Source of the DNA: Owenia fusiformis
Taxonomy: Eukaryota
Assembly: GCA_903813345.2 (NCBI GenBank)
Contig: CAIIXF020000001.1
Span: 10,664,001-10,728,000, forward strand
DNA: 64,000 bases
Reading direction: 5' to 3'
Shown: positions 958 to 55,885 of the stretch, piece after piece
Position numbering within the stretch: position 1 is the stretch's first letter
Layout of the letters: every line of letters begins with the position of its first letter
The notes under the pieces: model-generated
Seen by the model: only the letters and a program-made list of their open reading frames with translations
The model's database searches: none
Told to the model about the DNA's origin: nothing
Program-made: the position numbers and the translations under genes

Positions 958-992
958 AATTAAATCTTATTTATGAAGTTAGAATAGCTTAC

Positions 993-1128
993 AACATCAG
1001 TGATGATCTCTGGTCTATGGTTCCTCATATGCTTCACTGTCTGGAAGATGTCTATTTCCTGTTCTATCTTCATCTTTTCTCTTATACAGTTCAATGCTGC
1101 ATAGACACCACTGAACTGGGACCCATTC
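993..1128 (-). CDS. RPTP exon 32, D2 degenerate active site
   Basis: VNGSQFSG...[11 protein letters not shown]; 136 nt. Confidence 0.93.
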
Positions 1129-28100: not shown

Positions 28101-31100
28101 ACAATTTTTTCCCCAGAGTGGGGTGTTTTTGGGGGGTGGGGGGCTAACTCCTCAAAAAAAGAACTTCCTACCACTCTGCGAAGCTATCACCTAGGTGGAA
28201 ATTTCATCCAAGACTCTCCCCTAACTGAAAATACTGCCAAACCAACTATACACCATTTATTGAGAATTTTCCTCCTCGCCCCTTGAGTAATAATATAATA
28301 TGTAAGCTTTTATTCTGCAAAACTGAGAATATCCAACAAAAATTAAGAAAATTAATCTAAAGTTAGAGGATTGTTTCTCTGGGTGACCCTGTATATTAAT
28401 AAATACTTACACGAGGAAGTAAACAAGGAGAAGTATAACAATGAGGACAACAACAGCCGCAATGACGATTCCAACAATAGCAGCTCCCAAAGCATCTTCT
28501 GTAGCTTGGTGCGATGACTGAATCTTAGCCTCAGTGGATACTGAAGCTCTGCCAGCATTAGTGTAGTTCCCTATGACATTCTGAAGCATAAATGATCATT
28601 TTATATGTATTGCATTTTATGATAATTGTGAGATTAATTTTCACTAATAATGCACTGACCTAGAGCACTGCATCGACCTACTAATTCTTTTGTGCATCGT
28701 GACCTACTGATTCTTAAGTGCATCGACCTACTAATTCCTTAGTATATTTCAAACCACACATGTATGTCATAATGATATTTTATTCTACAAATGCTTGGTT
28801 AATTTGACATAAATAGTACCATGGTTACTTAGGGGTCATAAAAAAATGATAAAATAAAAATGATGTCCATTTTGAATCAATGTTCACTTATAAAATTATG
28901 TAGTTTGACAATTTCAAGCCAGTTAATGTGATGCTTTTGGAGTAATGAGCAAAAAGAACTGAAAACATGACCTTTATTTTTGAGGATAAAAGTGGCAGAC
29001 ATTTTTGAATTTTACTATATATTTTGCCAATAAATGGACAACTGAAGACTTTTTATAGACACATTTTAAAAGTGAAACGATTTCAATTGCCATGAAGGAT
29101 TTCGAATTTGGTAACACATAGACAGACGGACAGACGAATGAATGGACAGACAGATTCAGATTAATTCTCACCTCTCCATCTTTGTACATAGTCCCAATAT
29201 GGAATTCATATGTTTCTCCAGGGTCAAGATGTCTGTTATTAAAGCCATTGTAATTCCTGTTATCTCCTATCGTGAACTCATTCTTTTCCGCGATCATACT
29301 CGGGAGCACATCCGCAGCAACATACTGATCTATATTCTGTGCTTTGGCTTGCTCATACGTCAGTGCTGTGTCATACATTTCTTCACTTGATCGTTTTTTC
29401 CTTCTATTTGGAATTTTTACAACTATAAATCTTATAAGACTGGAAAGCAAAAAAAACAGACGGATAAACATAAAAATAGACTCGAAAAAGTAGATTTTGT
29501 TTTACTGTAAAAGATGATCTCAGGGAAAAGGCTGTCAAGATGACCAGGCTAGTTGAAAGTGTGTATATTCACTTTTATTATTTTGGCCTGACTGCAAAAC
29601 CAATCACCACCCAGATCACCTTATACTCATTTGAAACTTGCAAATTATTCAATACTTTCACCATTTGCTAAAATATGGGTAATTTTAAGTAATGGTTACA
29701 GTTAAGGACACAATGCTATTTTAAAACCATGAATGTTGACTACCAACATCTGATTCTTGCAATATATCTAATATTTTAACAGTTATAAGAATGAACTTGG
29801 GTTTAAAAAAGGGTCATATGTTAACAAAGAGTATATTCAATATGTTTATCTAATTTGAGCTCAATTGAGTCATTTATCCACTTTATTCTCCCGATACTAT
29901 GTTTTTCAACAAAATTGTCAATATTTTAATATGGGGAATTAACAGTATATAGTAATACTACATCCACACTACATCCAAACACTCTACTTTTATAATTATG
30001 AAATATTTGCTCACTCTGGTTGGTCAATCCCTTGTGTGTACATAGCACCCTCTTTAAATGTGATGTCTACCATTCCGTTCATAGATTCCTTGTTACCATC
30101 ACCAACTTTAACTTTCATATCATCCTTTGGGATCGCAGGAGGAGCTACAATTGAATATTCAATACTATCAATGTACTGGTTCTTTACACATTTTAAATGA
30201 ATTTCTATCTGTCTGTATGCTTTCTGTTCCAATCCAAAAAGTGAGAATAGGAAACAATTCAAAATATGTTGCACAATGTGTAAAATTTAGAGAACAAGTT
30301 TTTATAAAATCACAGGAAAAATACTGAAGAATCCTAGCGCAACAGTGATGATAATGACATCATTGACAAGTTATTCTCTCACAATCATGTGACTTTTCTA
30401 TATGTTTATCTGAAATCAACATCCAACATTTTAGAACCTCTATTATATGTTAATATAATGTGTTTCTTGTTCAAATCCAGGGCTTACGTTTTTTCATTGT
30501 TTTCTGTGTGATTGGATTAGATGCAGGCCCCGGTCCAATACTTGTAGATGCACTAACAAAGCAAGAGTAGTTGCTTTCAGATTCAAGGTTGTCAACTCTT
30601 ATTTCCAAAGTTGAGCTGTCCACTGTACTTGATCGTTGGAAATCTGAGGACTGATCCTCACACTTGGCCTACAGACATAGTACAATGAAAATTAAACTCA
30701 TAGTAATATTATTTGTACACATGGAAATATCAAAATAGGTTCTAAATAAAGCTATAAAATCTTGCATCATCTATTACATTTAACTTTAAGTTAATGCAGG
30801 TCATGGAACTCTGAAAGGTATTCAACTAGTTCCACTTACAAAAAAGTTCCACTTTCAAAGGTGTTCCACTAACAAAGGAGTTCCACTTACAGAGGACCAC
30901 TACCTAAAAGCCTTTACTGTACATTAACTTGTGAACAACCACATCTATGTACTGTACTTTATACTCACCGTGTAGTTGGTGATGATACCATTCTTCTCAA
31001 GAGGTTCTTCATACTCTAATCTTATATAGTCACTGCCATGTGACAAACGTTTGAGATTCCTCGGGGCGCTTGGAACTGGAAAACATCATGAAAACCAAAT

Positions 31101-34100
31101 ACTAAATAGATAATCAGATTACTATTATTTTATTCAATTCAAGAACATTTCTAGCATTTTGAAGTAATACGTAACAATATACTACAGAAAAATGAGAGCG
31201 ACTTTTGGGAATGTATAGAAAATGGCTGAATGAAAATGTTTGAATTATCCTGTATGATATTAGTAGTTTTTACTTGAACATTAAATGGTCTTCTTTGAAA
31301 ATTCAGTCTTACAACAACACAATATTGATCAATTAAAAGTTCACCAGGAAATGTTGTTTACATAGATAATACTACAGATCCTTTAAATTACCCCCTTCTT
31401 GAGTTCTAAGTTCTCCAACACTGCTGTTTACACTGTAATCATCATCATTTGTAATTCTGATCTTGAATACATATGTGGTGAAGAAATCTAGAGCTGGGAT
31501 GGTATATTCAGGAGTTTTTGTGTCTTCCATTTGCATAGCACTCCAAACAGTGTCTTCTTCTCTCTTGTATAGGATCTCTACTTTAGTCAGACTGTTACAG
31601 CCCCATGTGTCCATAGGGGGATACTGGAAAATATGCCAAATGGTGAAATAGGAATTCAAATATTAATTAACTGAAACTGGAAAAGTACTATTGATATTCA
31701 TCAGAAATAATAAACCAGAACAACGGCAACGCCAAAGCGTAGCGAATCCCATCGAACAGCCTTGGCTGGCATTTTTACAAACAAAGTATATAGCAAAAAT
31801 GGCAGCCATTTTTCAAAATGGCCACCTTCTACCAAAAGTGTCATTAGACAGTGTGCCATACTTATAATATTCACATACCAAATATGAACAAAATCGCTCT
31901 ACTACTTTTCGAGTTATAGTAAAATGCGTTAAAATGGCGGCCATTTTCAAAAATGGCCACCTTCTACCAAAAGTGTCATTAGACAGTGTGCCATGCTTAT
32001 AGTATTCACATACCAAATATGAACAAAATCGCTCCACTACTTTTCAAGTTATAGTAAAATACATTAAAATGGCAGCTAATTTTCAAAATGTCCGCCATTT
32101 TTCAAAATGGCAGCCTTCTACCAAAAGTGTCATTAAAGACAGTGTGCCATGCTTATAGTATTCACATACCAAATATGAACAAAATCGCTCCACTACTTTT
32201 CGAGTTACAGCAAAAATCGTAAAATAACGAGTAAAGGCCGCCATTTTTTAAGATGGCTGCCATGTGCTTTTTTAATATCTACATTTCTAGCTTTATTAAT
32301 GTCTTACATAATTTTTTACATTTAAAACATATTGCTATTACAGTTTTACATATTGCACCTAAATTACTGTAAAATCGGTACTAAAATGGCCGCCATTTTT
32401 AAATGAACAGCCATTTTGAAAATCGGCTTTCGAGCAGAACTTCTAACCCCATAGGGTATGTGTGTACAAAATATGAACAAAATCGGGCCAACGGTATTTG
32501 AGACTTGAGTTATTGCCCGGACAGACGGATGGACGTACGTACAGACGTACGTACGGACGGACGGAGGCGTTCCCTATATCCCTCCGAACTTCGTTCGATG
32601 GGATAATTAAAGTAATGGCTTGATATTTCATATGTTGTATAAATATTTAAAGTCTTACAGTCCAAGTGAGCTTGACAGAAGTTTTTGGACTTTCACTAGC
32701 TGAAACACTGTCTGTTATATTGCATCCTTCTGTGGGAGCTGGAAAAAAAATTAAAAAATTTAAATTTAAAAGGTAACAGTTTCTGCAACATTTTCTTATC
32801 ATTTCTTATTATGTTCATTTATTTTACATATAAGATTTCGATAGCTGAGGCATAAAGGACTATTGTCAGACTCCATATTAAAACCATGCTTTGCCTCATT
32901 TATAAAAGATATATTCTCATCTGGATTTTCAGCATAAAAGAGAGATCAAGGACTAGTAACTAATGTAAAGCAGAAAAAACATGAGGCCACCTTCAAAGAG
33001 ATGCACAAAGCGCGATACAATACCAAAACAATTATGTTAATTTTATGATAACCTCCACATAGGGTTGTTCCTTCAGCTCCTCTTGGTCCTGGTCTCCCTT
33101 GGTAAAGCTGACCTTTATACTCAGAGTAAATCACAACCCTGAATGCATAGGCCTTATTAGTAGCAAGGCCAGTAACAACCGTTGTATTTGTATTGCCTTC
33201 TCTTATATGGTCCACCTGACAAGAGATTAAATCTATAATTAACATTTTTGACTTTTAACTTTATTTTGATGCCTTTCTACTTATTACAAGTAATTTAATA
33301 CAATGAATAATGACAAAATTGAATATTGTATGTGAAGTACTTCAAAATCACAGATATCATAGCCTCAAGTTAATTAATGCACATGTATTGCATTTACTTG
33401 TCTTGTACAATAACACCAAAGTGTTCTTCCAAAGTGTGTTACCTTAGGTCCATCGGTGCATATGTCCCCCACACGAGGTACATCACAGTACTGTACAATG
33501 TAATGCTTTATAGTGACTTTGTCTGCATCACCTGCATCCACTCCTGATGTCCACTGGTTGAATGTTACACTGATTGAATCAGATGTAACACTTCCTTCAG
33601 CTAACACTGGTGGCTTTGTCATAACAGGCAGATCTAATGAACACAAAATATTGTTGTAGCAACAGCATCAATATGTTTTTGTACATTAGTTTTGGATATT
33701 GAACTCTGATGACCGTAAAATTAAAACAAAATTCCAATTGTATTGTTTCTCATGTATACTCTCATCTTTTGTGAATCTGAACATCTCAATATACATGACA
33801 ACCTTTCACTTCTCTGTATTACCTTTAGTCAAAGAGTTGTACAAGGGAAATAAAGTGATGAATGAGACAATCACCTTTGCAGAGTTCTTAAACATTTTCG
33901 GATTGAAATTCCTTGACATATTCAGGGAACAATATGAATTTTCAGAGCCGTTTTGCTTTGCACTGCTTCAAGAAACTCATTTCATCTTAATTTCCCTTAC
34001 ATTTTCAGGTCTGCAAGAACAACAATTTGCGACTGTTTTGGTCACTCTTAACTTAAAAGTCTCTTTGCATTACAATCAAAATATTGATATTGTATTTTAT

Positions 34101-43100: not shown

Positions 43101-44569
43101 GACCGAGCTCGGGCATACTGGGGGTGCATTGGGTGCGACCACACTCTCCTTTTGAGCCAAGAAGAGGAAAGAAAAACTGTGTGCTCTAGCGAAATAGGTG
43201 GAGCAGCTAGACTTCAAGTTCAAGCAAGCTATGCTAATAGAGATACACCGCATTGGAAAAATCTGGGGTGAGCCCCTGCAGTGTTTAGTGATCATTTATA
43301 CAATGAATGCTGAAACAACAGTTTCGTCGAAATCTTATATAATTCTTCCATTATCAATATCATCACATGATCGTACTATAATCTTTTGGACCAATTGTAC
43401 AGAAGGTTGCAACTCCCATCCCCTAAACACAACAACTCACAAAATTAAAACATATGTTGCATTAAAAGTCTACTTAAACCGTTCATCTTTATCATTATTC
43501 TTTCAATACTCGTAAGTCTCAATGGAACTGACAAGGTTTGTAACAACATACATATATATATATATGTACCTGTGCTCTGTCAACTGGGGTCATCACAATG
43601 GACAAGGGTATAGATACAAACTTTTAGACCTTTCAATAGAAATAAAATAAAACAGGTATTAGTGAAAAGTAAAAGTGAGAAAACAGCGCATGAGTGTTAA
43701 ACAGTGACAAGTGAATAAAGACAGCATCCATGCGTGTAGCGCTATTATTATGAGTAGTACTCCACCATGGGAATAAGAGTTGAATGAAGTGAAAAATGAG
43801 CGTTTAGTGGGGGCGGTTCCCATCAGAAAAAATCTAAGCTTGGTTGTATTTGGAGTGTATGTAAAACCATCTGGTACGCCTGTGAGTACCAGGCCTACCA
43901 AGGCACCTTATAGGGCTTATAGTAGGGCCATGGGTTTTCAATTAGACTAGTTGAAACCCCATGGTAGGGCCTATATCTTATAGTGCCAAAGAGTTCGCTG
44001 AACACAGACGTGGACAAAAGGGCGAAGATGACACAAGAAACTGAACTGTTTCTCCTTTTAGACTCCAGAGCATGGATAATTCGCTGACATGTGATATCTA
44101 AACGTATTCCTGACTACTGCGATGCATTTGTTTTGGACAGTGGCCCAAAGATTGAAAGAATATCAGTTGTGCAACGAAATGGCAACAGGTTCAGGATTCA
44201 AGCGATATCAGTCAATGGACAATATAGCACAAAAAATAAAATGACAACATTATAGAAATGCAATTGCATAAACATATATCTAGTTATACACTCATTTTAT
44301 GCATTTTAATTAATGTGAAGCCTCCCCCTCCCTCCTCTGTAGATTTACATGGTTAATTATTTATTAACTTCCGGGTCGATTGGGCGTATAGTGGTCCACA
44401 GAAATAAAGTTGTTTTTACCTCAAGTGACACCTCTTACTTGGATTAAATTTTACAATTATATGTATATGACCCTCCTCCACAATAAAACACTATGAAATA
44501 TGACTTACCTATAGATTTGATGACCAAGACCAGGTGGCAAAGTAGAACCACTTTCCAGCGACTTTTCAT
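993..44569 (-). CDS. Receptor-type protein tyrosine phosphatase (FTL/PAN-EGFx3-FN3-TM-D1-D2), 32 core exons, 3' end outside window
   Basis: 32 GT-AG exons with compatible phases total 4680 nt with no stop. Motifs [40 protein letters not shown] in D1, plus a second PTP domain. Orthology to a named PTPR cannot be assigned. Confidence 0.93.
1568..1725 (-). CDS. RPTP exon 31, D2
   Basis: [10 protein letters not shown]...GPIVIHC; 158 nt. Confidence 0.93.
2755..2880 (-). CDS. RPTP exon 30, D2
   Basis: NCAKYWPD; 126 nt. Confidence 0.92.
3101..3619. repeat. 32-bp minisatellite, ~16 copies
   Basis: Unit GGACACACATGGTGATTCCTTATGGCCATTAT. Confidence 0.95.
4542..4631 (-). CDS. Candidate cassette exon inside D2
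   Basis: tag|90 nt|gtaagt, phase 0-0, [30 protein letters not shown]. Confidence 0.55.
5238..5496. mobile_element. Short hAT-like MITE (CACTGGCGGATCC ends)
   Basis: Imperfect TIRs; relatives at 41961 and 46311. Confidence 0.65.
5707..5778 (-). CDS. Candidate cassette exon inside D2
   Basis: tag|72 nt|gtaagt, phase 0-0, [24 protein letters not shown]. Confidence 0.55.
6053..9698. mobile_element. 3.6 kb TIR element with 6-bp TSD TTAAGA, unclassified
   Basis: CAGTCTATGGCATGGGCCATTTTCCACC inverted at both ends; second inverted block GTAAAATGGCCCGACCT; TTAAGA on both flanks. Confidence 0.8.
6936..7577. mobile_element. Tc1/mariner-type hairpin MITE
   Basis: CAGGGTGTCCCGAAAGTATG TIRs with long inverted arms; second copy at 59052. 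Confidence 0.9.
10461..11302. mobile_element. Tc1/mariner-type MITE
   Basis: TCGGGTGT..AAAAATGAGACAC TIRs, TA flanks. Confidence 0.8.
11365..11499 (-). CDS. RPTP exon 29, D2
   Basis: [19 protein letters not shown]...IVMLN; 135 nt. Confidence 0.95.
11725..11798 (-). CDS. RPTP exon 28, D2
   Basis: RPYLIT...DYINAVYLD; 74 nt. Confidence 0.92.
12110..12209 (-). CDS. RPTP exon 27, D2
   Basis: [12 protein letters not shown]; 100 nt. Confidence 0.92.
12666..12815 (-). CDS. RPTP exon 26, D1-D2 linker
   Basis: [19 protein letters not shown]; 150 nt. Confidence 0.95.
12998..13133 (-). CDS. RPTP exon 25, D1 active site and Q loop
   Basis: SAGVGRTG...MVQT; 136 nt. Confidence 0.95.
13383..13948. mobile_element. 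Tc1/mariner-type MITE
   Basis: CAGGGTGG..CCACCCTG, TA flanks, long imperfect inverted arms. Confidence 0.85.
14157..14302 (-). CDS. RPTP exon 24, D1 WPD loop
   Basis: [10 protein letters not shown]...LVHC; 146 nt. Confidence 0.95.
14641..14763 (-). CDS. RPTP exon 23, D1
   Basis: KKCEQYWPD; 123 nt. Confidence 0.95.
14823..15293. mobile_element. hAT-type MITE
   Basis: TAGTGTTGTCGC TIRs, exact 8-bp TSD GCTACAAG. Confidence 0.9.
15547..15644 (-). CDS. RPTP exon 22, D1
   Basis: DMWRLVWQE...IVMVTNLVE; 98 nt. Confidence 0.95.
15839..15875 (-). CDS. RPTP exon 21, D1
   Basis: GY...YIASQG; 37 nt. Confidence 0.92.
17468..17544 (-). CDS. RPTP exon 20, D1
   Basis: YDHSRVIL...DYVNASYI; 77 nt. Confidence 0.95.
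18313..18400 (-). CDS. RPTP exon 19, D1 pTyr loop
   Basis: [12 protein letters not shown]; 88 nt. Confidence 0.92.
18711..19021 (-). CDS. RPTP exon 18, juxtamembrane region and wedge
   Basis: IDNPTF...[10 protein letters not shown]...LFEKEY; 311 nt. Confidence 0.88.
20004..20024 (-). CDS. Candidate 21-nt juxtamembrane microexon
   Basis: tttctacag|GATTCATCCAACAATATTTCT|gtaagt; frame-preserving. Confidence 0.5.
20327..20421 (-). CDS. RPTP exon 17, basic stop-transfer segment
   Basis: [10 protein letters not shown]; phase 2-1 fits neighbouring exons; 95 nt. Confidence 0.85.
20780..28289 (+). mobile_element. Degenerate AcademX-like DNA transposon with ~1.2 kb TIRs
   Basis: TIRs with ~182-bp subrepeats, TA..TA ends, 3-bp TSD ATA; broken XPG-like motifs [38 protein letters not shown]. 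Confidence 0.8.
23512..25429. mobile_element. Transib-like non-autonomous element nested in the Academ-like element
   Basis: 71-bp perfect TIRs starting CACGGTG, 5-bp TSD AAGCA. Confidence 0.88.
28411..28580 (-). CDS. RPTP exon 16, transmembrane helix
   Basis: [24 protein letters not shown]; 170 nt. Confidence 0.92.
29172..29439 (-). CDS. RPTP exon 15, membrane-proximal FN3-like with furin site
   Basis: RRKKR; YVAA...[23 protein letters not shown], typical of RPTP juxtamembrane ectodomains; 268 nt. Confidence 0.92.
30015..30144 (-). CDS. RPTP exon 14, membrane-proximal FN3-like
   Basis: PPAIPKDD...; 130 nt, phase 1-2. Confidence 0.8.
30488..30668 (-). CDS. RPTP exon 13, FN3 repeat 3 (second part)
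   Basis: [24 protein letters not shown]; 181 nt. Confidence 0.88.
30969..31075 (-). CDS. RPTP exon 12, FN3 repeat 3 (first part)
   Basis: VPSAPRNL...NGIITNYT; 107 nt. Confidence 0.88.
31392..31623 (-). CDS. RPTP exon 11, FN3 repeat 2 (second part)
   Basis: [16 protein letters not shown]; 232 nt. Confidence 0.88.
31713..32606. mobile_element. Helentron-type non-autonomous element (pearl/HINE-like)
   Basis: Subterminal inverted repeat ATCCCATCGAA/TTCGATGGGAT, tandem core units, (GGAC)n microsatellite. Confidence 0.75.
32659..32738 (-). CDS. RPTP exon 10, FN3 repeat 2 (first part)
   Basis: TSVKLTWT; 80 nt. Confidence 0.85.
33053..33215 (-). CDS. RPTP exon 9, FN3 repeat 1 (second part)
   Basis: [15 protein letters not shown]; 163 nt. 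Confidence 0.85.
33443..33633 (-). CDS. RPTP exon 8, FN3 repeat 1 (first part)
   Basis: [11 protein letters not shown]...HYIVQY; 191 nt. Confidence 0.85.
34110..34241 (-). CDS. RPTP exon 7, EGF-like
   Basis: [14 protein letters not shown]...; 132 nt. Confidence 0.9.
34552..34698 (-). CDS. RPTP exon 6, EGF-like
   Basis: [16 protein letters not shown]...; 147 nt. Confidence 0.9.
37831..38095 (+). mobile_element. tRNA-derived SINE
   Basis: A box TAGCTCAGCGG and B box GGATTCGAACCC, but no clean cloverleaf; followed by a non-tRNA body. 3' end approximate. Confidence 0.65.
38674..38811 (-). CDS. RPTP exon 5, EGF-like (MEGF/Tie type)
   Basis: [16 protein letters not shown]...[10 protein letters not shown]; 138 nt. 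Confidence 0.9.
39164..39258 (-). repeat. Partial tandem duplicate of the exon 4 3' end with donor site
   Basis: Encodes [29 protein letters not shown] then gtaagt, vs [28 protein letters not shown] in exon 4. Confidence 0.9.
39296..39499 (-). CDS. RPTP exon 4, C-half of F-type-lectin-like domain
   Basis: KIYVG...NALC...C...GNWVII...LSLCEVKI; 204 nt, phase 1-1. Confidence 0.85.
39998..40252 (-). CDS. RPTP exon 3, PAN/Apple-like Cys module
   Basis: [16 protein letters not shown]...GCYAF...YTYFK; 255 nt, phase 1-1. Confidence 0.75.
40350..40580 (-). CDS. RPTP exon 2, N-half of F-type-lectin-like domain
   Basis: [15 protein letters not shown]...CSQT...PYWRVPL...IEIT; 231 nt, phase 1-1. Confidence 0.85.
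41057..41690. mobile_element. MITE with ~50-bp TIRs
   Basis: ACGCCTGGTGATCGTACAAAATGGATGG.. inverted at both ends. Confidence 0.85.
41961..42188. mobile_element. Short hAT-like MITE
   Basis: CACTGGCGGATCC..GGATCCGCCGTTG; same family as 5238. Confidence 0.7.
44509..44569 (-). CDS. RPTP exon 1, signal peptide
   Basis: [20 protein letters not shown], donor GTAAGT, phase 1. Confidence 0.8.
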
Positions 44570-45449
44570 GTTTACAATTTAATCTAAATGACGGATTCCG
44601 CGAAACGAATACATAAGTGTCCCAATAGCTAGGGCGACATCTTTAAATTCAAATATTATTATTTTCGACTTGTCATAGATCCCGGCCAGATTCTTTTGTA
44701 GTAGAATCAGTAGCTCAATTAATATTCTTGAAAGTTTCTAAAATCCGCTGTATAAAAACAAGTTCAATAATTAACACTTAATTATTCTTAACGTCTTCCA
44801 ATGTTCTTAATAAAACTTATGAAGCTAGTCTTTATTTTACAATAATTTATTATTTTTTCAATAAGAATTGCCACCATTCTTAGAGAGAATTTAAACATTT
44901 CCACCCATTTTTGCACTTTGAATCTATTATAACTCCACAAAATAACATATCATGAATCTTTTGGGAGATTGTAATTGAGATTGTAAGGATTGTAAGGTTA
45001 GGCCTAGGTCAATTGTACATACTTGTATTGCTTGTAATTTTGTCACCCGCATAGATCTGATATTCTGCCGTGGTATTTCCCCGGGTATTTCGAAGGATTG
45101 GAAGCATTAGAAGTTGCTGAAGTTACTACACACCAACCCGCGCAATCAACATAAAGTTATATAATGATTTGTAAAATGGTTGTGCCGTTGGTGTGCACAT
45201 CTGATTTTTAAACTTTAAATTCACATGATCAATGGCGTAGCTAAGCGTCATGTTATATAGGCCCTACAATAAACGCCCCAGTGGCGTTAACTAAATTTTA
45301 GGGAAAAATTGATTTATTAAGCATATATTGAATTGCCCCATACATGAAAATGGATAAAAATGGCCAATAATTTACATTATAATAGTCCATATTCGTCGGA
45401 ATTTCGATTTTAAAACGCCTGAGAACGCTTTAGGCTAAATGTAATCTCC

Positions 45450-45813
45450 CCGGTAATCTCATTTTAAACCTTCAACAATTTGGCCCAAAAATCTCCAAAG
45501 GAGAAGGGGAAATTAGCGCAACAGATTTTGGACAGTCATATGTTGGATTTTGGCCATTTTCTGAGGATTTAAACAATTGCATATGTTAGGCGAATGCATT
45601 ACCTCCAGGAAAATCACTTCTATTCAGGGGCTTTAAGATACCCATTATGGGTGACCAAACTTAGCTGAAAGCAATGATTTTTACCTATGGGAAAATAACA
45701 TGGGAAATATTGTTTTCCACTTTATGACTGTCCAAAATCTGTTGCGCTAATTTCCCTACTCCTTTGGAGATTCTTGGGCCAAAGTTGTTGAAGGTTTAAA
45801 ATGAGATTACCGG
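45450..45813. repeat. Inverted-repeat module related to 26440-27035
   Basis: ~90-bp arms; shares CGCAACAGATT..CATATGTTGGATTTTGG. Confidence 0.7.
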
Positions 45814-47338
45814 CTAATTTCCCTCCTCCTTTACTTGAAAAGTGCTCAAAATGGTGAAAAACTGCATGATTTTGAGAGTATTTTTGGCCAGGGGAGGGGT
45901 CGCTCGAGTCGCCCCCTCTTGAGTGAAACCTCTTGAAAGCCCATGGTGTTTTATGAGAAATAATACCCGAGGGCCTTGATTTTTCAGTGCTCTGAAATTG
46001 TGACTGAAAGTGCGATAAGTTGAAAATGTGCCCAATAAACGTACTGCTCCAAATGACAAGACCTTTGAAATTTCGAAAAATCGTCTGAAACAAAAATTGT
46101 TGTAAAAAGGAAAATGGATTGCTTTCAAATCATTTTTCTCTTCAAATCATTTTTTTCTAATTCTAGGAATGAATTAAAATTTTAAAAACCCTAGCATAGT
46201 TTTGGGCACTTCATTTTCTGAAAGATTTGATAGATTTCGTTTGATGACCTTTCCAAACTTTTAACTATTTTTCATTCACATTTTCAGAGGTTTGAAAAGG
46301 ATAACTTACACACTGGTGGATCCAGAAGATAACAAGGGGGGACATTTCAAGAAGGAACAAGATTTCCAGAAAAAATGTGGGCCCCACAGAAGCAGAGGTA
46401 ACGCTCGGAGTGATGAACTTCGAAAATTCGATGCCCATATTATGATGACTTGGCCTAAAAAGGTCTAAAAGTCCAAGATTTCCCAAAAAAGGCCCATTGT
46501 TGACGCCCTACAGAATTTCCTGGACGTATCTACAATACGAACCAAATTAAATGAATTTAATTAACTGAAACTAGGACATTTTCAACTAGGACGTTTCATC
46601 CTTCTACACCATTCTATTCTCATAATAGAAAAAAATTCTCTGAGATGTTATGTTAATTTCATTACTAAAGGGTTGATAGTTGCGATCACAACAATGTTGG
46701 TATTGTCTATTGTGCCCTTGGTCATGTCCCTTAGCAGACAATGACCTATAATTACAATGAAAATAATACCTATTCAGGGCCCTATTTGTTTGATTTACAT
46801 TTACAAAATGTTTAATCACATTCAATTACAAAAATGTCATTTTCATTAGTGGTTTTGAAAATGAGAACACAATTTTGTTTTTATTAGTTTGCCTTCTGGC
46901 CTCATTAGCATACACATTTAAGTTTTCCCAAGTTATATACACTAGACAATACCACGTATTAAAAGATAACATGATAGTTCAGTTTAACAAGTCAAGTAAA
47001 TATGAATCGAACAAATTAAATGGTACATTAAAAATATAATTCGGAAGTGAGGGAAACCGTCCTCTAATTAAGTATTCGTAGTTTGGAGAACGAGTTTCTC
47101 GCAGTGTAACTAATGGACGAAAACTCAATTTCTTACCTGGAGTATGTTTCCAATGCCATCGTGTCATGACAACATATTGGACCTAATTTTGAAGTAACGT
47201 ACACGGTATATGCAGATAAATGTTAAAAAACAGCACTATTCAAGCGAGGGGTGCTGCTTACGGAAGGACTTAACCAAGAAAAATATTAGAGATTTATTCT
47301 GTACGACTTGTTAGGCCTAGTTAGACATATCATAGAAG

Positions 47339-47394
47339 ATGAGTAGTATGCCAAGACCATACAGTTCTGCCAGTCACCCGCGGCAAGATACACG
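47339..47394 (+). CDS. Candidate alternative first exon A
   Basis: MSSMPRPYSSASHPRQDT, phase-2 donor GTGAGT. Confidence 0.5.
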
Positions 47395-48942
47395 GTGAGT
47401 TACTTACTGAACGTACTCGGTTCACATTGCATTGTCTTTTCATTATATACCCATTCTGATACTCATAGCATCTTTCTGTTTCACCTGAAACAGGGCTGAG
47501 AAGAAATGAGATGTCATGGTATATCATGATGTTATATACCATGCAGAGTCTCTCTGTGTAGGCTTTTAACATTGAGTTCCCTCTTCTTGATATTTCCCCA
47601 TTTTCCGCTGGCCATAAGGGTAGAAGCAGGTGTATACTCTTCATTTTTTGCATACTGCGTCCCTATAAAATGAATGAATTAGAATAACACTACTATTTTC
47701 ACAATTCTATTGATATTAGGGGTCAACTGCTCATATATGGACATATTTGAAGACCCAAAACGCCTTAGTTTCAGAAATATCACAAATTAGAGTGGTCCAA
47801 AAAGTGAGCCGCTAAAACGGGCTATATTTCCCTTATTATCTGCAGGAATCCTTTCATATTTTCACATGTTGTAGAGGAATGCATGTTTAAAGTTTTTGTT
47901 CGTATCATACATTTTATTAGTCTTGCATAAAGTATAAGTCCAAACCAAATATTACTGAAAATGGATAAAATGTGAACTTTAAGATCCGCGATTCTTCAAC
48001 CCTTCCCCTGACAATTTTTACCCGCTGTCTGAAAGACCTAATATTTTCTGACTTTATTTGGTTTTGAATTCCACACATTATGGTGTAAAAGCTAGCATCC
48101 TACCTTCTTTAGTTGCAAAATTATTGTGATCCAAAGAAATGTTCTAGGTTTGCAATTTGCATTGACGATTTCAAGTGAAATCGCAACATTCCCCTATATA
48201 TATACTATATGGTCTTAAAATGTCAATATCTCAATTCTAATGAAATATGGCTCAAAACGTTGAATATTGGATTTTCTTTTGAATTTTGTAAGATATTTAT
48301 ATGAAGGGCTTCTCGGATTCCGGGGCACAGGGGGCAAATATTTCACACAGGCCCCGTCTGCATAGTGTGTGATGAGCGGCGGAAAAGTACGCCATAACTT
48401 CACAATCCATTCCAAAATGGTGGATAAACCGCTCGGAGAAAAACTGCTACGCCTTGACCTATTTTTCAGTAAAGTGTGTCACTCCCGGGAAGTTTTTAAC
48501 TTTATTTAACGATAGAATTGAAAAACTGCAAGCGTCATTACAGTTTTTCAAAACACGTTGGACAGTAACTTGACATATTTCTTTTCATTATAACCTCAAT
48601 AATGTATGCCAATCTAATGTTGAATATGTATTGATCTAAATCTTAAAGCGGTAAAGGTTTTCATTTTGAATACCGAAAAAACAGAAAAAATCAAACACCA
48701 AATTGAAAAAAATGAGTCGATGAACAGCTGTTCTTTATTTAGCATCATTCATTCACAGAGATCTGAGCCAAAGATAAACAGTACATAAAAAGTGAATCTT
48801 TTTAGTGCGTCTTTGGTTGAATCATTTTAGAGCCGTGGAAGTAAATATTGACAAGGGAAGTAAAACTTTAAATATCACATTTGTAATGATCAGACTGACG
48901 ATTGATCCCACGATTGAACGCAAACGTTAAAAGAGACTGAAG

Positions 48943-49076
48943 ATGAGATATCCGCTCGTTTATAGCTATAGCGATGGCATACCAATCAAATATTATGAGA
49001 CAAATCAACCAGCAACATATTCACAAGTTGTATACAAGTATGCCTCTAACAAAACGGCTCTACCAATTATATCTTC
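48943..49076 (+). CDS. Candidate alternative first exon B
   Basis: MRYPLVYSYSDGIPIKYYETNQPATYSQVVYKYASNKTALPIIS, phase-2 donor GTAAGT. Confidence 0.5.
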
Positions 49077-49799
49077 GTAAGTACATATCATATATAGCAA
49101 TGACAATTACATCACTACCTTTATTAGAGAATCAGATCTAGCGAGTAAGCTAAACAAAAAACTTGTTTGAATTTTAGAATACTTTTGGCTCATATCATTC
49201 TTTGTCATGTCTATTTTTTATTCCAGGAAAAGTTGACTGTTCCGGTCACTTAGAACTACGCGTTTGCTTCAATGGTCATTTTTCTATATAAAAAAAATTT
49301 TAAGTCTCGTTTTAATGATTTTTAACCATTGAAGACTAACGTGGGGCTAAATCCCATTGTTGAAAACCCTTTAAAGGTTCATTTACTCTTACAAGGATCA
49401 CAATTCTAATGTGAAATCACAATCCACATGTCAATAAGATCATATAGTCACATTCCAATGGTGTTTGACATGTATGGTTTGATACCTAGATCTCCTACTT
49501 ATAAATCAAAAATATGTATCGATATACAATATACGAGGTACAGGTATATCTACAATTACTGCTTTACAATAAGTCATAATGCCGCTGTTTTTTGCCTGAT
49601 AACATTTTCCTGAACTGAATCCGGTTGGGTTTGATCGTCTTTACTACGCATAGCTAATAGGGTGGAATGAGATTTTTCAAATTAAAGAATATTTGGTTTG
49701 ACCTATACTTCTTGGACTTCTTTTGATATCTCAAAACCACACCATGCGTTTAAGGGAAATGCGTATGTTTGGAATTTTATGTAGTCCTCATTCACTGGT

Positions 49800-50193
49800 C
49801 AGTATCAAGCGGAGGTAACGGCCGTCACCTCCGCATCAAAGATGGCGGAGGGGAAGTGTAGCTTTCGATATTTTTAGTTTTCATCGAATTAAACTTTATA
49901 GCAAGTTGACATATAATGCTTTGATATTTGACTAAATCCGACTTATATGACATGGAAACTATGGAGTATGATAATTTGTTCATATATCATGCGTAGGTGC
50001 CATAATTGTTCAACGATATCTTCCACCGTTAAGGGAAGTTTCCATGTCATATAAGTCGGATTGAGTTCCAATATCAAAGCAATTTGTCAACTATAGTAGT
50101 CCAATTCGATGAAAACTAAAAATATCGAAATCGACATTTCCCGTCCGCCATCTTTGATGCGAATGTGACGGCCGTTACCTTCGCTTGATACTG
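49800..50193. mobile_element. Hairpin MITE
   Basis: CAGTATCAAGCG..CGCTTGATACTG with ~160-bp inverted arms. Confidence 0.85.
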
Positions 50194-51167
50194 TGTCATT
50201 GGAGTCACATGTTATTTTCAGGTATTTTATATACGATCATATTTGCACAAAGAGTGCGCTATAGTACCTCATTCTGATACTCATGGCATCTCTCTAGAGA
50301 TGGAGAGGGCGTGGCTTACCACGATGATGGTACCTCGAGAAATTTGGTTATAAAATGTATAAAAAGGGGAAAATAAAGTGACTTACTTATTTTGTACTAT
50401 TAAAAAGTAGGTCACTTAATTTTCTTAATTTCACACATTTTATACATTAAACAAAATATTCGCCACCCTCTTTTTTATGAGCAAAACGGAAAGATGTAGA
50501 CAATGTGGGTAAGGAGAAGTCTATATTTGAAAAGTAATATGTGACTACTATATGAGGATTGCGTCAAAATGGCCCAAAGTACACATTGACATGTAAAATC
50601 CCATTATGGAGACATCAATAGAGATACTTGTTAAGGAAAAAATATTATACTTAACTCCAAATCACAACAAAGCACCTCGTTTTTAACATTACAATCTTCA
50701 TCAATTTTAAACAAGCCAGTCGTTTAACCATGGGGAATGGCAAATCTTTTCCTTCGACTTATTATTTTTTGCCAACATTTTCATTGTCTAGGTCGCATTT
50801 TGAAACTCTAAAATGTAGCCCCAAGTGCGACACAACAATTTTACAAAAACATATGAGATGACACTTGAATGTATCATTAATTATGTTCAAAACAATACTA
50901 GGCCTACATCATCGATATAAAAGTTCAATTCATTAATAAATAAATATTTAACCCTTGAGTGCTAAATTGCCGCTCTTTTTCACATTGGTTCGAAAGACAG
51001 ACATTCAACGATGTTGACATGAAGCAACATGCTTGCTTAGCACGGGTGTAGCCAGGCACCAGGCAGGTTAAATATTCCAAAATATTGCAAAAATATTTCA
51101 GACGTTTTTTCAACGAAAACTGAAAAATGTGGAAGTTAAGTTCAGAGCTGAGATGGAAATACGCCAT

Positions 51168-51378
51168 CGGGCCCGTAGCCAGAATTTGCCAAGGGGGGGG
51201 GTTCAGTTTTCAAAAATTTCCAGGGGGGTTCACATTTGACAATTTTGGTCCAAATATGGCTAAAATCACTTGAGAAGTGCTCAAAATGGTGAAAATCTGC
51301 ATGATTTTGAAATAATTTTTGGCCTGGGGGGGGGGTCGCCCGAACCCCCCCCCCCCCCACCTCCCTGGCTACGGGCCT
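51168..51378. mobile_element. Short hAT-like MITE
   Basis: GGCCCGTAGCCAG..CTGGCTACGGGCC TIRs. Confidence 0.7.
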
Positions 51379-51798
51379 GTGTCATTCTGATTTATCATAG
51401 CAACTCTTTGTCTAATTCTCTTTCTATTGCAAGGGATATATACTAGTAAAGGCTGTTGATCCCATGATGGAAAGATACCTCTTTTAGCCTCAATTTCCTC
51501 ACCAATTAATTTTTGCCTCGCCTAATTAGATTCTGACTACACCCCAGGCCCTGATTATTATAAAATAAAGTGTTTTTCAAAATCGATTCCTTCTCAGTTC
51601 GTTCATTGGCGACTGAATCGCTTGAATCATTGTATTTTTTCTTAAAACAAACAGTAAGGAGAAAACATAATAAGCTCAGTAAAAAGGTGATTTCTGTTTA
51701 CTTTAAAAAATAGGTTAGGATAAATAGCCTGTGTAAAGAGGCGGTTTGTTTAAAATTGGATTATTGCTCTCAAAGAATATCATAATATCAAAGGAAAT

Positions 51799-51866
51799 AT
51801 GAATGGCGACAATCTGAACGGGAATAACTCATCGTTGGTTCAAAGGGTTAAACTATTTCCTGACAC
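51799..51866 (+). CDS. Candidate alternative first exon C
   Basis: MNGDNLNGNNSSLVQRVKLFPD, phase-2 donor GTAAGT. Confidence 0.5.
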
Positions 51867-51989
51867 GTAAGTACAACTGCAATCATCATTTATGTATATT
51901 GTCAATTGTATACCGTTTAAAAATCTTCGGAGTTCTTTAATACCACACGGGCGGACTGTTGAAAGACACGTTTCATAAAGGTTAGAAAT

Positions 51990-52042
51990 ATGCCCAGCTA
52001 CACAGGAATACCGACCCAAGCTTTAGTTCCAGCCAAGGCCAA
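51990..52042 (+). CDS. Candidate alternative first exon D (or internal exon from 51998)
   Basis: MPSYTGIPTQALVPAKA, phase-2 donor GTAAGT. Confidence 0.45.
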
Positions 52043-52057
52043 GTAAGTGTGATTGCA

Positions 52058-52450
52058 AATGAAAAGTCCGAATGAGGTTAGCTAAGGCCATAAGACATTT
52101 TTAAAAGACTGGAATTTTAGGTCAATTAATTCTTTTTTCTTTTGACATTCATTTATTTAGCTACTCTCATTTTTTGTTAAAAAGTGTATATAGTGAAAAT
52201 TGAACTATAGAACCTTGTCCAATCATATATTGTTAAATGAAATGAATTCAAATGAAAAAACCGAATGAGGTTAGCGAAAGCCAGATAAAACCCTTTTTTG
52301 TATGACAGGATTTTAATTCTTTTTCTTTTGACATTCGCGTGTTTAGGCTACTTTTATTTCATTTTTTTAAACAAAAAGTGTATACAGTGAAAATTGAAAT
52401 CTCCACCCTCGGACCATGGTCGACTCTGGAGGCAGAACTATACAGCCTTA
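52058..52450. repeat. Diverged tandem duplication, ~190-bp unit
   Basis: CCGAATGAGGTTAGC...TTTGACATTC...AGTGAAAATTGAA occurs twice. Confidence 0.75.
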
Positions 52451-53497
52451 TCTAATCATGTTTAAAATAGCTCTAATGCCGTTTTGCTGAGTTTGACTGT
52501 TCTTATCCGGTTCTTACTCGTATAACAAATGTCTAAACAAAGGAAGGATGATAAGTTATCTTTTATTTTGGTTATACTAAATAGTTTCCTTGTTTTTATT
52601 CAAAATCAATTTTTAAAATGCAATCCATGCAATAAAACTGTAATACATTATTAAAATGCAAATGTTATGTTTTTTCAATAGCCATAGTTTCAAAGTGAAG
52701 TGTATATTGAAACATAAAAACCACACCTAAAGTAAATAACCATGTTGTGCTACAGATTTTAATAAGTAAATATTTTCATGATTTGGGTAGCCTTATCGTG
52801 AAATATGTTGAAAATAATATAACTTCCGTAGTTAAAACTTAGGAAGACGCGGCACATGAAGCAACATTTAGAATTGCAAAAAATGATATCTTGGTCACAA
52901 ACGCAATGGATATTTCTGGCATCTTATCCTTCATCAAAAGGCTTCATTGCTCGTTCAATTTAGAAAGAAATGAAATACCATTGGACCAAGGATGCTAGTA
53001 TCTTTGCTAAAGGGACATTTCTTTTTTACATCTTAGTTTACAGCAAATAGTCTTCAGTCCTATATCAAACAAATATGAGAGGGGTATTTGACCTTACCCT
53101 AGAAACCAGTTTTATAGTTTCTGTTTACATTAAGTGACTTATAACTTATTTTTGTCGCAGGTATAATATTTGCAATAAACGCGGCATACATTATTAGAAA
53201 ACATTACGAAAAAAGCACGACGCCCATATAAGATATCAATTAAATAGATTAAAAGATCTGGATTCACAGCTGTTGCAGCTGTATTTTAATTATCTAATTA
53301 TTGCCCATGGAACATTAGTTTAAATCTTTATTGACAAGACAGACGAAAACGAACTACAGGATATATATGCAGTACCTTCACCATCAGGTTTTCTGGTGAT
53401 GATACAATTATCTTATCGGGTTTATTAAAGGAACTGGTTGACTAGTTATTTGCTTTCTAGTTGAAATATATCATATTCGCATACTGGACTTATCATT

Positions 53498-53529
53498 ATG
53501 GAATACGTGGTTTCATCGAAGCTAGTAGA
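53498..53529 (+). CDS. Candidate alternative first exon E
   Basis: MEYVVSSKLV, phase-2 donor GTAAGT. Confidence 0.35.
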
Positions 53530-53731
53530 GTAAGTGACAAAGATCATAATCCAAACACTGTTAGAGAGGATCAGAACTGTTAACCTCATGTGATTGTAAA
53601 CATGCCGAATATAATTGTATTTCAAAATGAATATCATCATCGTTCACATTTATGCTGTGTCAGTCTTCAGCTTGTGGAAATTGTTTTGATAAGTTTTCAT
53701 GGTTCAAAACATGTTATGTTCATTCTTTCAG

Positions 53732-54137
53732 GGGCCCTTGGCGTGGTTTTGCAGGAGGCGACTTCACCCACCCCACAGAACATAAACCAATGGTGATCGA
53801 CATCATAGGTTGCCACAGGGAAGTCACCGTCTGCGGGCATATAGAGCTGTTAAGGAGGCTACCGATCAGACACCGCAACCACCTGCAACTGATGGAGACG
53901 TATTCCCGGGAGCCGGGCAACTACGAAGGGAGACACAGCGAGTATTATGACAGCCACGCGAAGCTGCTGGATTACGGCCACGGATATATTGCTCTACGGT
54001 TGTACGATGATATAACCAGGCCTGAGCTTGGAGAGTTCCTGTTGGGGAAAGGTTGGAAGATGATCGGTTTTGCTGCAAATAAGGATGGGAATAAAACAAT
54101 TATCACCGAGAAATGGTGCAATATTAGAGACCATTGA
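53732..54137 (+). CDS. Terminal coding exon of an uncharacterised protein, KCTD C-terminal/GFRP-like
   Basis: Acceptor cattctttcag; ~135 open codons, GC-richer than the flanks; REVTVCGHIELL and LGEFLLGKGWKMIG..TEKW parallel the KCTD1/15 C-terminal pattern. Confidence 0.75.
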
Positions 54138-54993
54138 TGAACACGATATTTAAGCTGATGATGGACAATGTGCATTCGATATTGCGGGGGATGGAGGAAC
54201 TTCATCGGTGGAGTGTATATAGTTAGCATATGTAATCGTCTCATTTGCAAAACAGATTAGATACGACGTAATATAGTGTTCAACAGTACCAAAATATCTT
54301 TAGGCAGTACATGATCTATTTAGCTGATCTTCTTCCATATCAACTTCCTTTTTATCTGCAACCCTGCCCACAGGAAATGGCTTTCAACATTTTCTTCATT
54401 CTAGGCTTCAACTCGTTGCCCAAAGGCTCTGTTTGGCACTATTCCAATGGCTAAACTGGTAATGCCATTAGTATTTCAATCAAGCCGAAGCAAATATCAG
54501 AATTAAATCTGATGATCAAATTTGAAACTGCGAATACTTTGGATATTATAGCCATTAAAAAGTATAGGATACACTCATATATATGATTGTCAAAATTATG
54601 TGGGATGCGAGTCAAAAAGTATATCATACTACCCCACGTGACCACATTTAAAAAGGATACAGGGTACAGTTAAGTTGCAAATGAAGCGGGCCTTCTCTAT
54701 CTTTGTCCATTGAGCTTTATTGGTAATAATGCGTTGCAAACTGCCCGATGGATCTATACAATGTATAGTAGAACACTTGGAATATATGTAAAATCTAGTA
54801 TACCTCAGAACTATGAAAATAAACAAACGCCCTCCATTTGCAACTTCACTGTATCTTGTATTTCTTTTAAAAGAAGACAGGATACAGTATGGGGTCTAGT
54901 AGTGAGTATATAAGTATGAATAAATAACTACAACTACCATGTTGTCATTCATTGAGTCTTATTTAGTTATTTGAGGCTCTTTCAGGCAAATGT

Positions 54994-55097
54994 TAGCCTT
55001 GCCCCAAGTCGGTCTCTTTTACTTATCTTGATTTCTATTATGACCGTAATAATTCAAGATCAGATAAAGTAAAAAATACCGACTTGGGGCAAGGCTA
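54994..55097. mobile_element. 104-bp MITE with 9-bp TSD
   Basis: TAGCCTTGCCCCAAGTCGGT TIRs, TSD GGCAAATGT. Confidence 0.88.
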
Positions 55098-55885
55098 GGC
55101 AAATGTCAATGACATGATAAATGAGACGCTATTTCCTAAAGTTCTAATGTTTGTAATAGTTAGTCACGAATCCTCCATTTATATCCTTCTGGCCATATTC
55201 TCGTTAAAGATAAACTGATAGACTGAAGTTACCATGTTGAATAAACGGTACATAAAAACTGTGAGTTTAATGCTGGTGTGACTCAAGGATCAATCCTGGT
55301 TCCCTTATTGTTGGAGAACGTAACATGGGAACCTATAGAATCATTCCGATGAATAATTCCCTCTGGTCTGTTTGACTACTTATTCACTTGCGTTAAATGT
55401 TGGACATGACCTATTTTTAAATTGTTATGTCGGGGTTTTTAGACTATGCGGCAAATTTCCGCACCTGGAACTACGTGCGATGTATTCAATACGTGCGAAT
55501 GGCGAATAAAACACTATATTCGATATACGCTGTGTTAACAATAAGTAGATCAAATCAACGTTTTTTACACAGACAGCAATTCCCACAATGTACAAATTGA
55601 TACACCATTCAATTATATTTCAACTCTAAAATGACTTGTGTAATACATGTTTATATATATTTTATTTCCATGAAAGGGGAACGGGTAGCTAAGGATCAAT
55701 ACTAACTACTAACTACTACATAAGTTAACAAATAGGAGACGAGAGATGTAAGATACGCCAGTTACGCACAGTTAAAGAAATGTCTCAACTTGAAACAACA
55801 CTCCGTTGCTTTACATGACATCTATTTTCCTAAATTACAACTGTCACATTCTCCACTCTCTAATTGGTCTCTGTCTTACATGTGA

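Follow-up and report, generated by a model that had tools for sequence, protein, structure and literature searches.

The use of alternative promoters and first exons gives N-terminal protein variants in animal genes. In the best known arrays of variable first exons, those of UGT1A and the clustered protocadherins, the variable exons are tandem paralogues, each of which encodes the main functional domain. A third point of comparison is the fold shared by the C-terminal domains (CTD) of KCTD proteins and by GFRP-like proteins, which forms pentamers in known relatives. Here we describe a locus of Owenia fusiformis lying within a window of 64,000 nucleotides (the whole stretch of DNA that was analysed). 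This is probably a small animal gene having at least two alternative promoters, with first exons 1a and 1d that carry their own ATG and are spliced in phase 2 to a constant exon beginning at 53732.

Five splice donors with a common reading frame

The constant exon is present in both of the spliced contigs described below.

53732..54663, plus strand: constant terminal exon, coding sequence 53732-54137

Its coding sequence comprises one base of a split codon and 134 codons, followed by TGA, and the 3′ UTR extends to at least 54663. As 53732-54137 is 406 nt in length with TGA at its end, the acceptor (cag|G, 53731/53732) requires an upstream exon ending in phase 2, as the initial annotation had stated.

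Scanning the plus strand from 45000 to 53731 for GT[AG]AGT gave exactly five sites, for which the last exon bases are 47394, 49076, 51866, 52042 and 53529. The initial annotation claimed that every such donor follows an open in-frame ATG with A at -3 and ends in phase 2. This is true of all five, and the full scan of this interval found no non-conforming site. The phase-2 ATGs lie at 47339 (also 47348), 48943, 51799, 51990 and 53498, each with A at -3, while four of the five sites have no open ATG in either other phase. The peptides were described as unrelated and 10-44 amino acids in length; they have 18, 44, 22, 17 and 10 full codons, each with an additional split codon, and none of the ten peptide pairs scores above shuffled sequences. 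In the corresponding DNA comparison the pair of candidate exon 3 and exon 1d alone beats the shuffles, yet the test windows for these two physically overlap. Repeat analysis found no repeat family linking the five exons.

Taking each site and phase separately, an open ATG preceded by A at -3 is found at a background rate of 12-13% when every GT position is counted (394-484 of 3287 or 3616), and at 25 of 180 site-phases for GTRAGT sites outside the region. The coincidence of phase and ATG was compared with shuffled sequence, in which the 300 nt ahead of every donor were shuffled with their dinucleotides preserved. Of 5000 trials, none reached five conforming sites with A at -3, and 5 did so if any ATG was accepted; the per-site chance was 0.08-0.09 and 0.21-0.25 respectively. 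Elsewhere in the window the longest streak of consecutive conforming GTRAGT sites, over both strands and all phases, is 2 (or 3 without the rule for A), compared with 5 here. Weaker donor-like sites in the same interval are at background, with 0 of 6 for GTRAG[ACG] and 3 of 15 for GTRA[ACT]T. The pattern of ATG and phase at all five strong donors thus exceeds chance, with the caveats that the rule for A at -3 may be post hoc, picked after inspecting the sequence, and that, with many windows scanned, chance alone will now and then produce a pattern at p of 1e-3 to 1e-4.

The interval also contains a number of repeats.

47436..47802, unstranded: high-copy repeat in intron (contig depth sum 347 to 13680, compared with 0-30 in flanking bins)
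49800..50193, unstranded: inverted-repeat element in intron (96-nt arms, 91% complementary, 202-nt spacer)
51106..51472, unstranded: high-copy repeat in intron (summed contig depth 1382-15018)
52050..52409, plus strand: unit of about 193 nt present twice (spacing 193-194)

The first of these sits just after the donor at 47394, and the copies of the 193-nt unit begin right after that at 52042. The inverted-repeat element looks like a MITE, and a related copy of the 51106-51472 repeat is found at 45833-45899 with 90% identity. A repeat origin of the five exons was rejected, because their bins are unique and of low depth, situated between the high-copy repeats.

Two first exons joined to one acceptor

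Junctions were taken from the assembled contigs of two RNA-like runs, X1 and X4, which come from different studies and are guessed to be RNA. Both behave as RNA, since unique intron bins are at or near depth 0. A contig of 1280 nt in X4 (record 17, depth 29.4) has 46954-47393/4 spliced to 53731/2-54569 with GT..AG borders. In X1 a contig of 1060 nt (record 3, depth 38.4, 0 mismatches) has 51915-52042 spliced to 53732-54663, again with GT..AG borders; this junction skips 1689 nt.

46934..46939, plus strand: TATA-like hexamer, 20 nt upstream of the exon-1a contig start
46954..47394, plus strand: first exon 1a, to the limit of the X4 contig; coding 47339-47394, donor GTGAGT after 47394
51895..51900, plus strand: TATA-like hexamer, 20 nt upstream of the exon-1d contig start
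51915..52042, plus strand: first exon 1d, to the limit of the X1 contig; coding 51990-52042, donor GTAAGT after 52042

Exon 1a encodes 18 codons and the split codon CG|G (R). Joined to 53732-54137, the segment 47339-47394 gives the public Owenia fusiformis protein P0002 (153 aa, 100% identical), which does not use the donor at 52042. The leader of exon 1a (46954-47338) contains nine upstream ATGs, so that either the real start of the transcript is further downstream or the 1a form is poorly translated. Exon 1d encodes 17 codons and the split codon AA|G (K), and 51990 is its sole ATG. The X1 contig begins at 51915 without any upstream exon, a contig end being no proof of a transcript start. Both contig starts, which need not be the transcript starts, have a TATAWW sequence exactly 20 nt ahead of them; TATAWW occurs 12-35 nt upstream of 8.2% of positions in 45000-53731.

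The initial annotation would have been undermined if a single donor were used, or if the exons were chained into one transcript. Neither is the case. X4 uses 47394 and X1 uses 52042, so that two distinct 5′ exons share one acceptor in RNA-like contigs. The depth in X1 is 0 in the bins containing exon 1a (46702-47435), and hence 1d is the main form in that run. Exon 1d in turn is uncovered in X4, where the value of 1.97 in bin 51840-52206 is due to one intronic contig of 151 nt (record 18, 52049-52199). From the junctions of X4 and X1, and the zero depth of each run on the first exon of the other, it follows that the exons are not chained and that more than one donor is in use; across these runs 1a and 1d are mutually exclusive. 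A chained arrangement was rejected on the direct joint of 47394 to 53732 in the X4 contig, which passes over all the other candidate exons between them.

These are the two informative runs (n = 2), each supplying one junction, and assembled contigs carry no transcript starts or junction counts and drop rare forms. Run X2 covers 30 of 30 bins and has one contig that is unspliced across the acceptor (53660-54683); as it behaves like DNA or unspliced RNA it is silent on splicing. In run X19 (raw RNA reads, about 6 in 100 of which were read) neither the constant exon nor any of the five candidates was covered (depth 0), and as this is so across the whole gene it says nothing about junction use.

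In the mechanism that we favour, transcription would start from at least two alternative promoters, each yielding a separate short first exon that carries an ATG. Exons 1a (ending at 47394) and 1d (ending at 52042) would each be spliced directly, in phase 2, to the acceptor at 53732, giving two mRNAs that encode the same folded core of about 115 residues with different N-terminal tags of 18-19 residues, and the choice of first exon would differ between samples. Each first exon probably has a separate TATA-type promoter, with translation beginning at its own ATG. The main effect of the switching may be regulatory, on the time and place of expression, rather than on protein function. This takes in what is directly present in the data, namely the two junctions, their exclusivity in the two runs and the reading frames, together with the disorder of the 1a tag in its model and the conservation of the core considered below. 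The proposed swapping of N-terminal tags on one small domain is consistent with the reading frames of 1a and 1d; for the other three exons no junction is listed.

This conserved animal gene would gain a second mRNA and protein form, apparently absent from existing records, the sole Owenia protein found (P0002) being that using 1a. Of the four donors that the public model lacks, one was confirmed at first look, and an argument from phase and ATG made on raw sequence can therefore point to real alternative first exons.

Three further candidate first exons

The remaining donors define three candidates from their sequence anatomy.

48943..49076, plus strand: candidate first exon 2, 44 codons and split codon TC|G (S), donor GTAAGT
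51799..51866, plus strand: candidate first exon 3, 22 codons and split codon AC|G (T), donor GTAAGT
53498..53529, plus strand: candidate first exon 5, 10 codons and split codon GA|G (E), donor GTAAGT

None of these exons has coverage in X1 or X4. For candidate 2 the depth of its bin in both runs is accounted for, by arithmetic, by short repeat-matching contigs near 49146 and 49201. In the bins of candidate 3 the X1 depth beyond the exon-1d contig is near zero (0.18 in bin 51473-51839), and the X4 depths are 0 and 1.97, the latter accounted for by the contig at 52049-52199. For candidate 5 the depth is 0 in X1 and X4 (bin 53308-53674). Among the joints listed for the X1 and X4 contigs, which are the stronger ones, none runs from 49076, 51866 or 53529 to 53732; the 15 weaker joints beyond these could include poorly supported junctions.

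One reading is that just 1a and 1d are real and that the other three conforming donors are coincidences in AT-rich intron DNA. We give this close to an even chance. Neither informative run provides RNA evidence for the other three, and only the two exons backed by contigs have a TATA-like hexamer 20 nt ahead of the presumed transcript start. Against this, it is improbable that three out of three further donors should conform by chance (about 7e-4 to 0.012, obtained by multiplying the per-site rates), and conforming streaks elsewhere in the window never exceed 2-3.

The same improbability argues for the full model, in which all five strong donors belong to promoter-bearing first exons used according to stage or tissue, placing five tags on one domain. 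This we regard as unlikely. It is consistent with the conformity of five out of five GTRAGT sites, a result that the shuffles never reproduced, and with the background level of the weaker sites. Moreover the two informative runs each used a different exon from the list, so that more samples could reveal more. Set against it are the lack of any listed junction or exon coverage for 49076, 51866 and 53529 in X1 and X4, and several features of the candidates themselves. In candidates 2 and 5 another ATG precedes the exon's own, by 57 and 99 nt; none of the three has the arrangement of TATAWW at 20 nt, judged against the ATG; and the exon-1d contig begins just 49 nt downstream of the donor at 51866. 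In addition the criteria were set post hoc, within a scan of many windows.

Taken singly, each of the donors 49076, 51866 and 53529 has somewhat less than an even chance of being a first-exon donor. The claim of five first exons is partly supported, with 47394 and 52042 both joined to 53732, and 49076, 51866 and 53529 unseen in X1 and X4. A compact five-promoter array, with all the strong donors in 6.4 kb working and five unrelated disordered tags placed on a KCTD-CTD/GFRP-like domain, is unlikely. If it did exist, mixed rings with different sets of tags could form, and strong donors here would be under selection to stay in a frame that suits the acceptor.

The domain encoded by the constant exon

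An internal in-frame ATG at 53790 lies directly before the conserved core, so that an untagged core could also be produced. In homologues the alignment begins with the core; their N-termini are short and dissimilar, most having just about 10 residues ahead of the core methionine. The relative P0004 keeps the reading frame across the equivalent junction, with a similar motif there (R-G-S-W-R compared with R-G-P-W-R), and as it has no methionine before the core it needs an upstream ATG. In the predicted model of P0002 the pLDDT is <50 at residues 1-4 and 11-35, and >90 in the core from about residue 40. The exon-1a tag is thus disordered in the predicted model, where the whole of the folded core lies within the constant exon.

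Neither the constant exon nor its extended frame has a Pfam match at E up to 1, and none of the nine relatives scanned has a BTB domain. Sequence searches of solved structures, made with the single protein and with a family profile, gave chance-level matches alone (E >= 0.14), and the best score in a Protein Atlas search was 0.83, below the useful range. Among 1.84 billion representatives the family makes up 15 clusters at 50% identity. Judged from these sequence comparisons, the constant exon encodes a rare stand-alone animal domain family with a conserved core. The domain itself has some interest, as a rare stand-alone family with no Pfam model and the predicted fold of KCTD C-terminal domains.

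The position of ATG 53790 is relevant to a further reading, in which the first exons serve chiefly as alternative 5′ leaders: initiation at 53790 would yield the functional protein, and the tags would be unnecessary or rarely made. The start of the conserved core right at this methionine, the short N-termini of most homologues, the nine upstream ATGs in exon 1a and the disorder of its tag in the model are all in keeping with this. We nevertheless think it improbable. The in-frame ATG at 51990 is the first in the assembled 1d transcript and has A at -3, so that a scanning ribosome should use it, and P0004 requires an initiation site upstream of its core. A last reading, that the 52042 junction arose artefactually (from a chimeric contig, rare cryptic splicing or a processed DNA copy), leaving the gene with a single first exon, is very improbable indeed; the junction comes from one contig in one run of guessed type, but that contig is long, deep and free of mismatches, with exact GT..AG borders, a consensus GTAAGT donor and the same acceptor as the annotated form.

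Comparison with known systems

The predicted fold of the core resembles the KCTD C-terminal (H1) domains and GFRP. A Foldseek match of the predicted model (core pLDDT >90) to the KCTD domain fold has E = 6e-4, and the core superimposes on KCTD1 (9foi, Z 9.5), KCTD12 (6m8s, Z 8.2) and KCTD16 (6qb7, Z 8.2), with 83-93 residues aligned, rmsd 2.1-3.4 and 10-15% identity; unrelated entries have Z <=5. Unlike the KCTD family, the protein has no BTB/T1 domain and no sequence match in Pfam or to solved chains, and it is stand-alone, at about 125 aa. GFRP (GTP cyclohydrolase I feedback regulatory protein; 6z80, Z 6.1) and the T. cruzi protein Q4D6Q6 (6xyb, Z 7.9) are likewise small and stand-alone with a similar fold; no sequence relation to either was detected in Pfam and PDB sequence searches. 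A fold shared with GFRP or Q4D6Q6 does not show a shared function.

The initial annotation likened the locus to the UGT1A and protocadherin clusters. The likeness is one of wiring, with units of promoter and first exon placed upstream of shared constant exon sequence, and to that extent the analogy stands. It fails for the exons themselves. In contrast to those arrays the variable exons are not paralogues, by the comparison of peptide pairs and the search for a linking repeat family; they encode just 10-44 residues, with the folded domain wholly in the constant exon; and two of the five units are seen in RNA-like contigs, from two informative runs.

The closest correspondence is with ordinary alternative first exons. 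There are mutually exclusive 5′ exons with their own ATGs, joined to one acceptor and used in a sample-dependent manner, and nothing essential differs. What is unusual is that all lie within 6.4 kb, that the tags are very short and that the strong donors of the interval are without exception frame-compatible. The locus is probably an instance of ordinary alternative-promoter use, which is commonplace in animals.

Two first exons are spliced to the constant exon

The 134-residue open frame translated from 53733-54137 is 100% identical to the public protein P0002 ('unnamed protein product [Owenia fusiformis]', 153 aa), which is composed of the peptide encoded by 47339-47394, a split arginine codon and the constant exon. 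The first of the five alternative first exons proposed in the initial annotation is therefore the annotated one. The constant exon runs for 406 nt up to its TGA from an acceptor (cag/G) at 53731/53732, and thus requires a donor in phase 2. The exons are

47339-47394, plus strand, coding part of exon 1a
48943-49076, plus strand, candidate first exon 2
51799-51866, plus strand, candidate first exon 3
51990-52042, plus strand, coding part of exon 1d, the fourth of the five
53498-53529, plus strand, candidate first exon 5
53732-54663, plus strand, constant exon, coding to 54137

Sequencing runs were matched via the constant exon, giving 18 runs that contain it (none recorded as RNA, 12 guessed to be RNA) together with three raw-read RNA runs. 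Three runs with assembled contigs (X1, X2 and X4) and one of raw RNA reads (X19) were compared with 44500-55500. A contig of 1280 nt from X4 (depth 29.4) joins 46954-47394 to 53732-54569 with GT..AG borders, which matches the annotated junction and leaves out all four other candidate exons. In X1, from a different study, a contig of 1060 nt (depth 38.4, zero mismatches) joins 51915-52042 to 53732-54663, skipping 1689 nt, again with GT..AG borders. More than one donor is thus in use, and the second, that of exon 1d, is not used by P0002, the sole Owenia protein found for the gene. A prediction made from sequence was therefore right for at least one donor absent from the public protein model. 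The depth of X1 over exon 1a is zero, and the small depth of X4 in the exon 1d bin is explained by one intronic contig of 151 nt, so that in these two runs the exons are mutually exclusive. Since bins of unique intron sequence are at or near zero depth in both, X1 and X4 behave as RNA. X2 has coverage in every bin and runs unspliced through the acceptor, and X19 has zero reads on the gene; both are uninformative on splicing.

The donors at 49076, 51866 and 53529 have no junction among the joints listed for X1 and X4, with fifteen weaker joints outside that listing, and by arithmetic on the depth tables coverage of their exons in these runs is nil beyond short repeat-matching contigs. Two of the five proposed exons, ending at 47394 and 52042, are thus seen spliced to 53732, while the other three stand as candidates.

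The neighbouring gene lies upstream on the opposite strand, where exons of a receptor-type protein tyrosine phosphatase occupy 11245-33667. Its domain matches are

11245-11604 and 17327-17635, minus strand, Y_phosphatase
28974-29501, minus strand, Fn3_PTPRU and membrane-proximal PTP domain
31372-31662, minus strand, weak Fn3-like match

Strong donors share a phase and an ATG

A full scan of the plus strand found exactly five GTRAGT sites in 45000-53731, and each of them is preceded in phase 2 by an open in-frame ATG that has A at -3, as had been claimed; none is non-conforming. At four of the five there is no open ATG in any other phase. The window is AT-rich (31-37% G+C). When all GT positions are considered, an open ATG with A at -3 has a background rate of 12-13% for each site and phase; GTRAGT sites elsewhere, counting both strands, have it in 25 of 180 site-phases. 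The longest conforming GTRAGT series elsewhere in the window is two consecutive sites (three without the A rule), and conformity among the weaker donor-like sites of 45000-53731 is at background level (GTRAG[ACG], 0/6; GTRA[ACT]T, 3/15). Dinucleotide shuffling of the 300 nt upstream of each donor reproduced full conformity in 0 of 5000 trials, a result to be read knowing that the A rule is possibly post hoc and that many windows were scanned; allowing any ATG context, 5 of 5000 trials did so. The observation is thus correct and leaves out no site, and the pattern exceeds chance.

Accidental conformity of all three unverified sites has p ~7e-4 to 0.012 (product of per-site shuffle rates). On this basis we give each of these candidates slightly less than an even chance of being real, and consider it rather unlikely that all five are used.

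Anatomy of the first exons and the intron

TATAWW hexamers occur at 46934 and 51895, and each of the two contigs starts exactly 20 nt after one; only 8.2% of positions in 45000-53731 have such a hexamer 12-35 nt upstream. While contig ends cannot prove transcription starts, this placement fits two separate TATA-type promoters. With the ATG as reference point, none of the three unverified candidates shows this arrangement. In candidates 2 and 5 the start codon is preceded by another ATG, at a distance of 57 and 99 nt respectively.

The ATG at 51990 (A at -3) is the single ATG in exon 1d, and is therefore, in the assembled mRNA, the first AUG. In the X4 assembly, exon 1a has a leader of 385 nt (46954-47338) with nine upstream ATGs before 47339, each opening a short frame that stops before the main ATG. 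Such a number is not usual in a translated mRNA; either the start of most transcripts lies further downstream, or this form yields little protein.

All five exons sit in unique sequence between the intron repeats, which are

47436-47802, high-copy repeat
49800-50193, inverted-repeat element
51106-51472, high-copy repeat
52050-52409, two tandem copies of a ~193-nt unit, beginning directly after the verified donor at 52042

The second copy of the tandem unit has no donor. One very abundant repeat is present at 45601-45967 and 51106-51472; the copies have in common a stretch of 67 nt (90% identical) as well as tracts rich in either G or C, and in RNA-like runs summed contig depth reaches 1e3-1e4 in bin means and ~1e5 at single places. 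A 135-aa frame at 45722-46129 has no Pfam match. The final 101 nt of the intron (53631-53731) contain no stop in the constant exon's frame and include an ATG at 53652 (T at -3). If left unspliced, a transcript from just upstream would encode an N-terminally extended protein, although this could easily be chance.

The constant domain and its tags

The constant domain has no match in Pfam and no sequence match among solved structures, whether by protein or by family profile. It has 13 relatives of 97-160 aa (48-72% identity), and only 15 clusters emerged from an exhaustive profile search of 1.84 billion representatives. Among these, a distant member, P0016 (408 aa), has a hydrophobic N-terminus, with a SUEL-type lectin domain and a low-complexity Ser/Thr-rich linker before the conserved domain, so the domain is also found at the C-terminal end of a longer protein. 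The aligned region begins at the core (…V-L-D-V-I-G-C-H…) and ends at a conserved C-terminal E-K-W-C-N-I, and the relatives' N-termini are short and unalike. One relative, P0004, begins with only M-C-V and then preserves the reading frame, together with an R-G-S-W-R motif, through the position corresponding to the exon junction; no Met lies ahead of its core. This argues for use of the upstream ATG and for freedom of the tag to vary in content.

The AlphaFold model of P0002 has a mean pLDDT of 77.9, above 90 in the core and under 50 at residues 1-4 and 11-35, from which the exon 1a tag, the only one modelled, is predicted not to be a domain. Structural matches of the model are the KCTD1 C-terminal domain (Z 9.5), the KCTD12 and KCTD16 H1 domains (Z 8.2), T. 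cruzi Q4D6Q6 (Z 7.9) and GFRP (Z 6.1), well above unrelated rows, none of which exceeds Z 5; Foldseek agrees (E 6e-4). The likeness to the KCTD domains and GFRP is in predicted fold only, and lacking a BTB domain the protein is not a KCTD family member.

The five exons encode 18, 44, 22, 17 and 10 codons plus split codons for R, S, T, K and E. None of the ten peptide pairs is more similar than shuffled sequences, in agreement with the earlier view that they are unrelated, and there is no DNA similarity among the exons save between candidates 3 and 4, whose test windows physically overlap. The variable exons are therefore not paralogues.

Proposed function and comparison with known systems

We propose that at least two units of promoter plus first exon are used in different samples, each supplying an ATG in the sole phase accepted by the constant exon. 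Given that the tags are short, that they differ from one another and that the only one modelled is disordered, the switch would mainly set when and where the gene is on, perhaps also translation efficiency. A tag-specific function is possible; an untagged core initiated at the internal ATG at 53790 is a further possibility.

A search with the species name and 'alternative promoter' found no relevant literature on an alternative promoter in Owenia fusiformis. The suggested likeness to the UGT1A and protocadherin clusters holds for the wiring. It does not extend to their defining traits, variable exons that are paralogous and encode domains, since the exons here are unrelated and the 1a tag is disordered in the model and not a domain. 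The locus is an example of ordinary alternative first-exon use.
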